A stretch of DNA of 62,977 nt, the filler included. It is 4 parts of 4 records of this genome, joined end to end, with 100 filler letters (N's around TTAATTAATTAA, not from the genome) between each part and the next. Parts side by side here need not be neighbours in the genome. Positions count along the whole stretch, not along the records: positions 19,803 to 47,668 come from DRR723986_1724; 3 more parts are not named here. One strand, written 5' to 3'. Positions within the stretch are counted from its first letter, which is position 1; each line of letters starts with the position of its first letter. Shown here one piece after another: positions 41,540-45,847 of this stretch. The position numbers were made by a program, and so were the translations under genes. The notes below the pieces were generated by a model. That model was given only the letters and a program-made list of their open reading frames with translations. It was not told the DNA's origin and did no database searches.

Positions 41540-41574
41540 CAACGAATTCTCGCTTGATCGAATGGGAGGCACCA

Positions 41575-43905
41575 ATGAGTGGTCGTTCAAAAGCCTGCGC
41601 ACGCATCGCCTTGTTCATCTCAGTATGCTGTAGTTCGCTCGCATCCACGGCATTTGCTCAGCTCAAAATTGGCACCGCGAAAGTTGACGTAACTCCGGAG
41701 CAGTTGCCAGTCATCGTCAACGGCAGCATGACGAGCAAGCTGGCCAGTGAGGTGAAAACGCGTGTCTCGGCAAGGGCGATCGTGCTCCAGCGCCAAGAGA
41801 AGCGGATTGCGATGGTCGTTGTCGACAGTTGCATGATGCCTCGACCTTTCTTGGACGAAGTCAAACGAGTTGCCAGTGCGAAGACTGGAATCGCAGCCGG
41901 CGACATGATGATCAGTGCAACGCATACGCACACCGCACCGAGCGTCATGGGCGCGTTGGGGACCAACGCGGATGCGAGTTACGTTCCCATTTTGCAACGG
42001 CGAATTGTCGAAGCGATCGAGCAGGCCAACCGCACGCTCAGCCCGACACAGGTAGGCTGGGGAAGTGTGGACGCACCGGAGTACACAGCATTGCGTCGGT
42101 GGGTGCGGCGATCGGATCGGATGGAACTGGATCCATTCGGCAATCGAACCGTTCGAGCCAACATGCACGCGGCTAAGAATCTTGACAATGTCGTCGGGGA
42201 AAGCGGTCCTGAAGATCCACAACTTTCAATGATCTGCTTTCGAAGTCCACAAGGCTCAGTACAGGCAGTACTCGCCAATTTTTCCATGCACTACTTCGGC
42301 GACCAGAATATCAGCGCGGATTACTTCGGACGATTCTGCGACCGTGTCGAGCAGCACTTGGACAGCAAGAACCAAGCACTTAACCCGCAAGCGCCGGAAT
42401 CGCTAGTGATCATGTCGCACGGTTGCAGCGGAGACGTGTGGCGTCGGGACTACGCCGCTCCAATCGAACAGGCTGGCAATTCGAAAGCTCTCGAGCAAGG
42501 AGCGACAACTCAACGGAAAGCGGCACCGGAGCATCTCAACGATATAGACGGTTACACTGACGGGCTGGTCGCACTGGTTAGCGGAGCTCTTGAGGATGCC
42601 GAGTATTCCGAAGATTCAACGTTGGCAATGACTCAAGCCGAGTTGGCGCTGAAGTACAGGACTCCCGACGCGCAGCGACTGCATTGGGCAACGGAGATTG
42701 CCACTGACCTGGGCGACCGACTGCCCGAAACGCGTGAGGAGATCTATGCGCGTGAGCAAGTTTTCTTACATCGAATGCAGCGGACGAAGGTGCTTCTACA
42801 GGCAATTCGCATTGGTCCGATCACAGTCGCAACCACTCCCACCGAGACCTACGCGCTGACTGGTCTTAAGCTGAAACACCAGAGTCCGTTTGCTCGCACG
42901 ATGGTGATTGAACTAGCCAATGGTGGCGACGGCTACGTTCCACCGCCTGAACAACATCGCTTGGGCGGCTACAACACGTGGGCCGCTCGCTCCGCTGGGC
43001 TCGAGGAAACCGCGGAACCGAAGTTTGTTGGCCGACTACTCTCGATGCTGGAGACCGTTACCGGTGAACCGCGTCGCGAATATCGCCAGTCGCCTGGCGG
43101 TCGAGCAAAACGGATTCTTGACGCCAAACCGACGGCCTATTTGAGACTTGACGAGTTTTCAGGCTCGACAGCTAGGAATGCCGTTACTGGTGCAAGCGAT
43201 GGTACTATCGAAAACGGGGCGCTTTATTTTCTAGCCGGCGACGATCGGGCGTTTACCGATGGCGAACCGAATCGGTGCCTACATCTGGTAGACGCACGTG
43301 TTCGATGGGATTTTCCGCAGCCTGTCGCTAAATACACCGCCTTCTTTTCTGCTCGGAACGGCCTTCCACTCGATTCGCGAGACGTGATTGGTTGGCTCTT
43401 CTCGAACGATGATCCTTGGTCATTGAGTGATGATGGTGTTCACGTTGGAATCTTCCGTGGTGGCAAAATCGGTGTCCAAGTTGGTCAGCGGAGAGAGATC
43501 AGTTCCAGCCCTCATTCCTCAAGATGGGGTTGGCATCGCTACTGCGTGCGACACTCGGGCACCAAAGTTGAAGTATTTATCGAGGGAGTCATCGAGCCGG
43601 TTGTGGCGATTGCGATGAATGAGGATCCGGCTGAAGAGCACTCGTCGAACTTAACGTCTGCGAAAAAGAATTTGAACTCGCAGCGAAAATTGACGCGCGG
43701 ATCGGAATCTCTGTATTTCGGTGGTCGCAGCGACTTGGAAAACGGCCTGGAAGGGCGACTGGATGAAGTTGCCGTCTTCGATCGGGCCCTTTCCACGGAA
43801 GAAATTCACCGACTGCTATCGCTGCCTCCTGCCACTGGCGTTAAGGCTGGTGTTTCGAATGGCATAGCGGCCGAGCCAGACTTAGCGACCGAACCAGAAA
43901 AGTAG
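41575..43905 (+). CDS. Neutral-ceramidase-like metallohydrolase fused to LamG-like domain
   Basis: ISATHTHTAP, NFSMH, GCSGD, GYVP..GGY; C-terminal GRLDEVAVFDRALS.EEI. Confidence 0.8.
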   Translation: MSGRSKACARIALFISVCCSSLASTAFAQLKIGTAKVDVTPEQLPVIVNGSMTSKLASEVKTRVSARAIVLQRQEKRIAMVVVDSCMMPRPFLDEVKRVASAKTGIAAGDMMISATHTHTAPSVMGALGTNADASYVPILQRRIVEAIEQANRTLSPTQVGWGSVDAPEYTALRRWVRRSDRMELDPFGNRTVRANMHAAKNLDNVVGESGPEDPQLSMICFRSPQGSVQAVLANFSMHYFGDQNISADYFGRFCDRVEQHLDSKNQALNPQAPESLVIMSHGCSGDVWRRDYAAPIEQAGNSKALEQGATTQRKAAPEHLNDIDGYTDGLVALVSGALEDAEYSEDSTLAMTQAELALKYRTPDAQRLHWATEIATDLGDRLPETREEIYAREQVFLHRMQRTKVLLQAIRIGPITVATTPTETYALTGLKLKHQSPFARTMVIELANGGDGYVPPPEQHRLGGYNTWAARSAGLEETAEPKFVGRLLSMLETVTGEPRREYRQSPGGRAKRILDAKPTAYLRLDEFSGSTARNAVTGASDGTIENGALYFLAGDDRAFTDGEPNRCLHLVDARVRWDFPQPVAKYTAFFSARNGLPLDSRDVIGWLFSNDDPWSLSDDGVHVGIFRGGKIGVQVGQRREISSSPHSSRWGWHRYCVRHSGTKVEVFIEGVIEPVVAIAMNEDPAEEHSSNLTSAKKNLNSQRKLTRGSESLYFGGRSDLENGLEGRLDEVAVFDRALSTEEIHRLLSLPPATGVKAGVSNGIAAEPDLATEPEK

Positions 43906-44034
43906 GGGCAAACAACTAGCCAGCAAAAGTAGACTACGCGGGGCGTCGGCAGTGTGTTACAATTCGGGACTTCGTGAATTTGGTGGCCAATCTTCGGCCG
44001 ACAATTGAAACATTTGTATTGTGAGAGCGACTTA

Positions 44035-44124
44035 GTGGGCGTAAAGAAAAGCGGCAAGGGACGACGTAAGGTTGGCCGAAAGAAGAGACGCATGCGAGCA
44101 AAGATCCGTCACCGCAAGAAATAG
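44035..44124 (+). CDS. 29-aa Lys/Arg-rich peptide, candidate small ribosomal protein
   Basis: GTG start after GAGAG; MGVKKSGKGRRKVGRKKRRMRAKIRHRKK*; upstream TG-N-TACAAT. Confidence 0.7.
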   Translation: MGVKKSGKGRRKVGRKKRRMRAKIRHRKK

Positions 44125-44205
44125 ACGATCTTTCTAGCTGGGTTAGCGTTAGGTTTCCTGAGCAAGGGTTCCTGCGTTTTAGGTGCGTCGATTTCAGCAT
44201 CCCAA

Positions 44206-45663
44206 TCAGTGCATCCGCCCTAGGATTTGACTGAGTGGAACGGGCCCAGCGACTCTAGAATCAGTGCTTATCGGCTGATTATCCCCAAGCAAATAGAACT
44301 GGTCCTCTTGGAGGGCCAGTGCTTCGCTGCTGCGCCCCGGTTGGCGGCCACTCGTGCGGACAATAACATCGCGCGAAAGGCGAACGCCCTGGACGCGATT
44401 CGGCGCGCCAGCGGTCCTGACCTCTATCTCGAGCAGCCGCGGCAGATTGAACAGCGACGAGCTGTCTTGGTCGGCGACCTGCAGCCGATCCCCGGCTATC
44501 TCCTGCTCTTCTGTCATCTGATCAATGGGCTGTCGATCTAGTTGAATCTTGCCATCCTGGGCAATCGTCAGGGCACCATCGCAAAAAGCCACCTCAACGC
44601 GCCGTTTGGCGATTAGCGGGTAAGCTTGCTCGGATGCGGTTGAATCCTGGACATGCCCTTGCCGGACCAGTTCAAGTGAAACTTCTCTGGCGGGAAAGCC
44701 ATAAGTCCAACTGATCCGGATGCGAAACGGTCCACTCGCGTCATCTTCAACGCCTGACTGCTGATTCGCGGGCATGCTGATCGAACGCAAATCGATCGTC
44801 AGGAGAATATCGCTGGTTCGCAGCGGTACGTAGGACGCTCCTTGATTGAGAAGACCGTCGTCGCTGAGCAGAGTAAGTTCTCGAGGTGTTTCGGCCTGCC
44901 AGCGAACTTGGAGCAGTCCCTCGCTGGCTTGCGCCGAAAAGAGCGAACCCGCATTGCCGCCCAAGCTTTGGGGCGTTCCAGACATCCTATCCGCTGATCC
45001 TGGAATATCGAGTTGATCAATTAGAGGCGACATCGTTCGAATCGCTGCAATCGGCTTCCGAAGCAGCCTTCCGTCGATCCAGAATTCACCACCAGCGGTG
45101 GCTACTTGTTCGCCGGGCAGGCCCCAAATTCGCTTCAGCAGCGGAGCGCCACCTGGCATGTCAGGGCCCTCAATTCCAGGGGTTTCGGCCGCTACTACAT
45201 CAAAACGATGGAGGCCTGCGTGCGACGGACGCTCCAGCGGAACGATTCTGACGATGTCGCCGCGGCTCGACTGATCTGCGATCGAGCAATCAGCCGCACA
45301 GTACGAGCACGTGCATGGTAGCTCTCTCCGAAGTGCTTCTGCCGCAACGACATACGTTCGCTTGCAGTTTGGGCAAAGGGCATTGAAGTGTCGGCCTACG
45401 ATGCCGGGAGCCATCGAATTGGTAACGACTTTAAACTGCTGAAGCCCGGCTTCTTCGGCCTGCGATCCTCGGTTGGTGCGAGCTGTGGAGAGATTGCTGC
45501 GCAGAGTCCCGTGATTGCTCGGGGTCTCGTGATTGCGCTGGGCCTCGGAATTCCGCGGGGCACTGCCGGCGAACAGCCCGAGATGCTGTCCTGCTAGAAA
45601 AGCCCCAATTGCGCAAATGAATATCAGTGCAATCAAGAGCCCGCTATTGCGACTGATCGGCAT
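44206..45663 (-). CDS. Signal peptidase I (S26) with CxxC/CxxC insert
   Basis: N-terminal TM, NSMAP (Ser), LKRIWGLPG (Lys), GDN..STDSR. Confidence 0.85.
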   Translation of the reverse strand: MPISRNSGLLIALIFICAIGAFLAGQHLGLFAGSAPRNSEAQRNHETPSNHGTLRSNLSTARTNRGSQAEEAGLQQFKVVTNSMAPGIVGRHFNALCPNCKRTYVVAAEALRRELPCTCSYCAADCSIADQSSRGDIVRIVPLERPSHAGLHRFDVVAAETPGIEGPDMPGGAPLLKRIWGLPGEQVATAGGEFWIDGRLLRKPIAAIRTMSPLIDQLDIPGSADRMSGTPQSLGGNAGSLFSAQASEGLLQVRWQAETPRELTLLSDDGLLNQGASYVPLRTSDILLTIDLRSISMPANQQSGVEDDASGPFRIRISWTYGFPAREVSLELVRQGHVQDSTASEQAYPLIAKRRVEVAFCDGALTIAQDGKIQLDRQPIDQMTEEQEIAGDRLQVADQDSSSLFNLPRLLEIEVRTAGAPNRVQGVRLSRDVIVRTSGRQPGRSSEALALQEDQFYLLGDNQPISTDSRVAGPVPLSQILGRMH

Positions 45664-45847
45664 CTTTTCCCTTACAGTTACGGATCTGTCCACTCCGCGG
45701 TGGACGCTGACGCTTGACAGCTTAGGGCCTGAAGTTGATCCTTGGAGTCCCAGCCGGATACTTCCCGTGGCATTTTAGGCACCGGGCGGGCCTCTGGGCT
45801 GTTCAAAGCGGCCACTGATGGCAGATTTTTAACCTTGAGAAATGCAG

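Follow-up and report, generated by a model that had tools for sequence, protein, structure and literature searches.

A near-universal gene for a tiny hyper-basic protein in a planctomycete class: a candidate ribosomal protein

We have found a small gene encoding a 29-residue, hyper-basic peptide that is a near-universal single-copy gene of its planctomycete class and is under strong purifying selection. Judged by its sequence, the peptide family matches no named family and is not recognisable as bS22/mS38 or eL41. The peptide is probably a ribosomal protein, and its placement in the particular inter-subunit pocket that holds bS22 or eL41 is a more tentative proposal. The original prediction, made from the DNA alone, had presented the locus as a candidate novel ribosomal protein with its own promoter. 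The presence of a genuine, lineage-restricted gene for a tiny, hyper-basic and unnamed protein withstood the comparisons described below, whereas membership of the bS22/mS38 family was borne out neither by the family models nor by hhalign or shuffled sequences.

A hyper-basic 29-residue reading frame in an intergenic gap

The window, by which we mean the whole stretch of DNA analysed (62,977 nucleotides), encodes a LeuC that is at most 87% identical to the LeuC of Pirellulaceae MAGs, and the window therefore derives from a Pirellulaceae-like planctomycete. The elements of the small gene and its immediate upstream region are as follows.

44035–44124, plus strand: coding sequence of the 29-residue hyper-basic peptide, with a GTG start at 44035 and a TAG stop at 44122–44124; the translation is MGVKKSGKGRRKVGRKKRRMRAKIRHRKK
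44023–44027, plus strand: weak Shine-Dalgarno-like GAGAG, 7 nt 5' of the GTG, without a 4-nt core match
43955–43963, plus strand: TGTTACAAT, proposed as an extended -10 element, 71 nt 5' of the GTG, unsupported as a promoter
44005–44034, plus strand: TTG-initiated in-frame extension of 10 codons, outside the protein; the flanks are not conserved and the orthologues start at the position corresponding to 44035

As originally described, the peptide is GTG-initiated and carries 17 basic residues among its 29 (9 Lys and 8 Arg, 59%) and neither Asp nor Glu, with a computed pI of about 12 and a computed mass of 3518 Da, or 3387 Da once Met1 is removed. It also lies alone in an intergenic gap, as had been noted: the gap spans 300 nt between a 783-residue ORF on the plus strand, which stops at 43905, and a convergent 495-residue ORF on the minus strand, which ends at 44206. 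The ORF listing of the window shows the frame of the peptide only in its TTG-extended form of 39 residues (44005–44124). When we screened for hyper-basic ORFs of 18–60 residues with at least 45% Lys/Arg and at most one acidic residue, the 29-residue ORF was the sole one in the 63-kb window, and the same screen of 29 planctomycete loci around leuC yielded four ORFs, all of 18–20 residues.

Purifying selection on the coding frame

Synonymous-biased conservation across relatives, which the original prediction had proposed as a check, was found. The 22 orthologues align codon by codon without a gap, with a mean pS of 0.775 and a mean pN of 0.103 over 231 pairs (pN/pS of 0.13), and the small gene is under strong purifying selection. 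For 21 of these sequences (L083, with its short flank, was omitted), the column identity to the majority base is 0.92, 0.94, and 0.52 at codon positions 1, 2, and 3, respectively, against 0.38–0.47 in the 100-nt flanks on either side. The conservation is bounded by the start and stop codons and bears a period-3 signature in the plus frame. Because this signature begins and ends at the start and stop codons, the overlapping minus-strand ORFs and the TTG extension are excluded as the conserved reading frame.

The orthologues are 83–96% identical and start at an aligned ATG or GTG. In a set of 41 orthologues, comprising the window and 40 loci of the long type, the start codon is ATG in 35 and GTG in six, the latter group consisting of the window together with its closest relatives. 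One of the motifs GGAG, GAGG, or AGGA occurs at positions -18 to -4 in 35 of the 41 orthologues, compared with 2–6 of the 41 in windows further upstream. The GAGAG sequence proposed as the ribosome-binding site is thus only partly upheld: a motif is present 7 nt 5' of the GTG and Shine-Dalgarno-like motifs are the rule among the orthologues, but the copy in the window is weak and belongs to the six of 41 that lack the 4-nt core.

With near certainty, positions 44035–44124 constitute a real protein-coding gene. The chance that the locus is instead a fortuitous ORF, a leader peptide or uORF of a neighbour, or the antisense shadow of a minus-strand gene is negligible, for although the ORF is short, two longer minus-strand ORFs overlap it (43806–44093 and 43934–44200), and an antisense frame clusters over eight loci, the third-position variation is confined to the plus frame, the conservation ends at the start and stop codons, the amino-acid sequence itself is conserved beyond the mere presence of an ORF, the antisense cluster is a mirror of the conserved codons, the downstream gene is convergent, and the neighbours vary among genomes. 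In many genomes, the small gene is overlapped by antisense ORFs of 75–118 residues, which form BLAST clusters solely because they mirror its conserved Lys/Arg codons.

Transcription signals

The small gene had also been credited with its own promoter on account of an extended -10 element. Although TGTTACAAT is indeed present at 43955–43963, this claim found no support. The motif TGNTACAAT has one match in the window against 0.59 expected, and at least one match arose in 44 of 100 shuffles. A scan of positions 43700–44400 for sigma-70 promoters and intrinsic terminators returned none of either, and a -10-like hexamer precedes 17 of the 41 orthologues, compared with 15.2 ± 2.7 in shuffles. The upstream 783-residue ORF lies on the same strand and ends 130 nt 5' of the small gene, and co-transcription with it is therefore possible. 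Folding of the downstream 90 nt gave a mean z of -1.0 across the orthologues, with 11 of the 41 below -2 and the window itself at +0.7. The 10 sequence sets listed as sharing words with positions 43600–44500 are all of DNA type and none of RNA type, with a best word share of 0.47.

A near-universal gene within one class of planctomycetes

Whole-genome six-frame searches located one full-length copy in each of five close relatives (5/5), including the isolate Stieleria bergensis, at 83–93% identity. We then searched the family, order, and class around one close relative (G002), as well as two samples of the phylum, with profiles A1, A2, and A4 built from the orthologues.

Family of G002, profile A1: 96/101 genomes matched
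Order of G002, profile A2: 142/151 genomes matched, 141 of them at E ≤ 4e-7
Class of G002, profile A4: 149/151 genomes matched, all at E ≤ 2.2e-6
Even sample of the phylum, profile A1: 31/401 genomes matched at E ≤ 1.3e-7
Smaller sample of the phylum, profile A2: 11/151 genomes matched

The small gene is a near-universal single-copy gene of its class, which is presumably the Pirellulaceae/Pirellulales lineage of the Planctomycetia. The family and order searches returned a single match per genome, bar three genomes with two. In the genomes G391, G559, and G634, two equal-scoring copies reside on different contigs, reflecting either assembly duplication or a real second copy.

Profile A4 matched none of the 151 genomes from the phylum of an Acidobacteriota MAG and none of the 120 genomes from the phylum of a Thermodesulfobacteriota MAG, and the absence of the gene outside Planctomycetota refers to these two unrelated phyla with their 271 genomes. 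The lineage specificity suggested earlier therefore holds at the level of the phylum (0/271 in the other two), but the gene is not confined to a narrow lineage, as it occurs in 149 of the 151 genomes of the class and has variants elsewhere in the phylum. These variants, found in other planctomycete lineages, comprise the 26-residue forms MAKPRRRRKIGSKKRRARWKVRHKIT and MAFKPRRRRKIGSKKRRMRKLRSKKK and one form of 30 residues. None of 1000 shuffles reached the alignment score between the window peptide and the 26- and 30-residue variants, which are homologous to the peptide. All 24 long-type carriers from the 401-genome phylum sample recur in the class sample, as opposed to none of the 13 carriers of short variants, and the short variants therefore probably lie outside the class.

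The small gene shifts position around the genome. Neither tblastn with the peptide nor blastn with the region gave a match in 80 leuC-anchored loci, and synteny with leuC, which we had considered, is thereby ruled out. We sought conserved neighbours in 22 and a further 20 loci and found none beyond those of close relatives and one antisense artefact; throughout these 42 loci, the small gene never adjoins translation genes.

Some observations concern the genes on either side. The upstream 783-residue ORF (41554–43905, plus strand) looks secreted and shows a weak match to a neutral ceramidase at the N-terminus and a match to Laminin_G_3 at the C-terminus. The downstream 495-residue ORF (44206–45693, minus strand) resembles an S26 signal peptidase of unusual length, with an N-terminal hydrophobic segment and a Cys-rich CPNC...CTCSYC stretch ahead of the peptidase domain. 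In the leuC loci, an S26 peptidase neighbour is common to only the two closest relatives, and the 495-residue protein is only about 26% identical to their leuC-adjacent counterparts.

A conserved core and a predicted helix

The peptide family is built around a 20-residue core, GRRK(V/I/L)GRKKRRMR..IRHRK, which is almost invariant; class-wide, the core GRRKVGRKKRRMR(A/S)(K/R)IRHRK is essentially fixed. Within it, G14 and the Arg/Lys positions are invariant and M20, I24, and H26 nearly so. The N-terminus varies across the class, with forms such as MGVKKSGKG..., MASRRRGKG..., and MGRRRGTG....

AlphaFold2 models the peptide with an extended N-terminus followed by one 20-residue helix (residues 11–30 of a 31-mer) at a mean pLDDT of 76. 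The modelled helix is straight, without a bend of the kind described for bS22. A Foldseek search of the PDB with this model returned no match at E ≤ 10, a result of little informative value for so short a peptide.

Comparison with known tiny ribosomal proteins

The ribosomal protein bS22 forms a bent helix in a pocket of 16S h2, h27, h44, and h45 and contacts 23S H68 and H70. This pocket is occupied by bS22 in Actinobacteria, Bacteroidota, and Borrelia, by mS38 in mitochondria, and by eL41 in eukaryotes. The planctomycete peptide shares several traits with the bS22 proteins of the PF08213/NF047430 type, known from Actinobacteria, as mS38, and from some planctomycetes: a length of about 30 residues, 50–60% Lys/Arg, a Met-Gly start, and a stand-alone gene that gene callers often overlook or over-extend. 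More generally, it has the size of about 30 residues, the content of more than 50% Lys/Arg, the lack of acidic residues, and the stand-alone gene that characterise bS22/mS38. Unlike the PF08213/NF047430 proteins, however, it lacks the KKRRKKMNKHK motif and possesses RRK(V/I/L)G(R/S)KKRR instead.

Database models gave no evidence of a known family. Neither the window peptide nor the three variants matched any Pfam or NCBIfam model at E ≤ 10, and phmmer and hmmsearch of the PDB sequences with the window peptide, a 26-residue variant, and profiles A2 and A4 gave no match at the same threshold. PF08213 had no match in the five relatives and none over the cut-off in 101 genomes of the order. NF047430 had none over the cut-off in 151 genomes of the class, where seven weak matches all fell at other loci. 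Searches of five genomes at E ≤ 10 with PF05162 (eL41) produced only weak matches, none of them at the locus of the peptide. As positive controls, planctomycete peptides of the PF08213 type match NF047430, and a profile of them finds the mycobacterial bS22 and the mitochondrial mS38 chains in the PDB.

Direct comparison between the two families gave the same picture. The hhalign probability for A2 against A3, a profile of planctomycete bS22, is 2.2% over six columns, and in pairwise alignment to bS22 real and shuffled sequences have equal mean scores, with a fraction of 0.31–0.51 of the shuffles at or above the real mean. No sequences intermediate between the peptide family and bS22 were seen among 273 representatives (see below). 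The HMM comparison with mS38/bS22, put forward with the original prediction, thus turned out negative, PF08213 and NF047430 being unmatched and hhalign and shuffles showing no similarity beyond composition. In a feature search with the Atlas language model, the nearest named neighbour was a PF05162 cluster (0.90), and a cluster with 26% PF08213 members scored 0.87; both are leads only.

Canonical bS22 does occur in the phylum. PF08213 exceeds its cut-off in 15 of the 151 genomes of the phylum sample, where it detects canonical bS22-like ORFs (MGSLIKKRRKKMNKHK...), and these 15 genomes do not overlap with the 11 carriers of the small gene in the same 151. A further 10 genomes that carry variants of the small gene have no PF08213 match. 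The two families thus share a phylum but never a genome, although this complementarity of PF08213-type bS22 and the small gene essentially reflects about one event in the phylogeny. Neither family was found in about 125 of the 151 sampled genomes, and consequently the bS22 pocket may not always be filled.

The peptide might, in principle, be a true but extremely diverged member of bS22/mS38 (PF08213), in which case there would be no new family. The equal length, the common MG start, and the basic run that precedes one hydrophobic and one small residue point in this direction, as do the mutually exclusive occurrence inside one phylum and the two feature-search neighbours mentioned above. We nevertheless consider such a relationship unlikely, given that both bS22 models failed to match, the hhalign probability is about 2%, shuffled sequences score just as well, and intermediates are lacking among the 273 representatives. 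By sequence, the peptide may be a bS22 diverged past recognition or may have arisen independently.

According to a study on Porphyromonas gingivalis, the bS22 pocket holds proteins of different sequence in different lineages, and convergence is suggested there (PMC12123416). The bS22 of Borrelia burgdorferi (bb0822) has 30 residues with 61% Lys/Arg, is GUG-initiated and unannotated, and is almost invariant in its lineage; the authors predict more such finds (PMC10618245). Our peptide resembles it in being similarly small and basic, in standing alone in the genome, in its occasional GTG start, and in having escaped annotation (PMC10618245). It differs from the bS22 of Bacteroidota and Borrelia, including that in the F. 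johnsoniae and P. gingivalis structures, in having no PDB match at E ≤ 10, a comparison that assumes these chains to be in the set searched. The eL41 protein is described as a single basic helix of about 25 residues in the same inter-subunit pocket as bS22 (PMC10618245). In contrast to eL41 of eukaryotes and archaea, the peptide family has an additional Gly-rich N-terminal tail of about 10 residues.

A probable ribosomal function

We favour a ribosomal role because the gene is distributed and selected like a core housekeeping gene, being near-universal, single-copy, and under strong purifying selection as genes of ribosomal proteins are, because the family and canonical bS22 are mutually exclusive among genomes, and because the AlphaFold2 model combines an N-terminal tail with one helix. 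A further reason is that Borrelia bS22 closely matches the peptide in all properties other than sequence (PMC10618245).

We propose that the peptide would be a constitutive tiny ribosomal protein, with the extended N-terminal tail and the single basic helix buried among rRNA helices. Its most likely site would be the small-subunit interface pocket, where h44 and h45 meet 23S H68–H70. The peptide would there stand in, within its class, for canonical bS22, which was not found in the class but is present in other planctomycetes. We put forward with reserve, as a possibility, the full proposal that a previously undescribed ribosomal family, unrelated in sequence to bS22, mS38, and eL41, universal in Planctomycetia and represented by 26-residue variants elsewhere, came to replace canonical bS22 in the interface pocket of the decoding centre.

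Tiny ribosomal proteins such as bL37 and bTHX are placed differently in the ribosomes of other phyla, and the peptide could be ribosome-associated without being an equivalent of bS22, either as a large-subunit or otherwise placed tiny protein or as an assembly or hibernation factor bound in some states. The conservation and the phyletic evidence apply equally to such a protein, the family has no sequence similarity to any protein of the bS22 pocket, and a predicted single straight helix specifies no site. On the other hand, no curated family of tiny proteins matches either, and the only positional hint, the absence of canonical bS22 matches from these genomes, points to the bS22 pocket. We consider a role elsewhere on the ribosome rather unlikely.

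It is improbable, finally, that the peptide is a non-ribosomal nucleic-acid binder, i.e., a nucleoid compaction factor resembling protamine or histone H1, or a general RNA chaperone. Its extreme positive charge without any acidic residue would suit such a function, and so would its restriction to Planctomycetota within the genomes searched, the solitary gene, which shows no association with translation genes, and the failure of every ribosomal model to match. However, non-specific polyanion binders keep their composition and not their sequence, whereas a near-invariant core is typical of peptides in a fixed RNA pocket. The 20-residue core of our peptide has Gly, Met, Ile, and His almost invariant class-wide, the pN/pS is 0.13, and the same genomes yielded no canonical bS22. 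Since Gly14, Met20, Ile24, and His26 are fixed, a peptide in an rRNA pocket fits better than a non-specific polyanion binder.

Should the peptide be ribosomal, a major class of bacteria with unusual cell biology would carry, in every ribosome, a component that is absent from annotations and structures. Should it also reside in the proposed pocket, the inter-subunit site by helix 44, which adjoins the decoding centre and the aminoglycoside site, would repeatedly have come to be occupied by tiny basic peptides that are unrelated to one another. The family would then be the third or fourth sequence to have solved the problem of this rRNA pocket independently, and it would merit a ribosomal-protein name of its own. 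Its presence there would also have implications for the way in which ribosomes acquire proteins and for differences in aminoglycoside sensitivity between lineages. In Mycobacterium smegmatis, deletion of bS22 leads to higher aminoglycoside sensitivity (10.1101/2023.03.31.535098).

Annotation of the small gene in databases

Among 5.8 billion clustered proteins, we retrieved 109 relatives of the peptide; all named ones are called "hypothetical protein", and none of the 109 carries a Pfam domain of relevance. HMMER searches of 1.84 billion representatives gave 273 matches at E ≤ 1e-3, in almost all of which the peptide forms the extreme C-terminus of a longer call. The longer database calls are false N-terminal extensions caused by the choice of start codon. 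Four database proteins (P0159, P0174, P0163, and P0168) run on with a Trp directly past the normal end of the peptide. We considered such fusions as functional hints and rejected them, reading the Trp at the normal end as read-through of a TGA stop. Some pipelines may thus have decoded TGA as Trp when translating planctomycete contigs, creating false C-terminal extensions. Our literature searches found no work joining bS22 with Planctomycetes, none on the core peptide string, and no planctomycete ribosome structure, small-protein, or Ribo-seq study.

A core gene of an entire class has thus been omitted or over-extended by gene callers, and a profile such as A4 would mend thousands of annotations. 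The antisense ORFs over the small gene could likewise mislead gene callers and give rise to spurious protein families.

Canonical bS22 ORFs of the PF08213/NF047430 type, with 29–34 residues (MGSLIKKRRKKMNKHK...), are found in planctomycetes outside the class of the window (loci L130–L139, e.g., L132:1501–1593 and L133:365–454, both on the minus strand). They are often embedded in longer open frames and would then be over-extended by gene callers. Several of the matches in L130–L139 cross a stop codon, and the bS22-type ORF of L137 ends early, at 22 residues.
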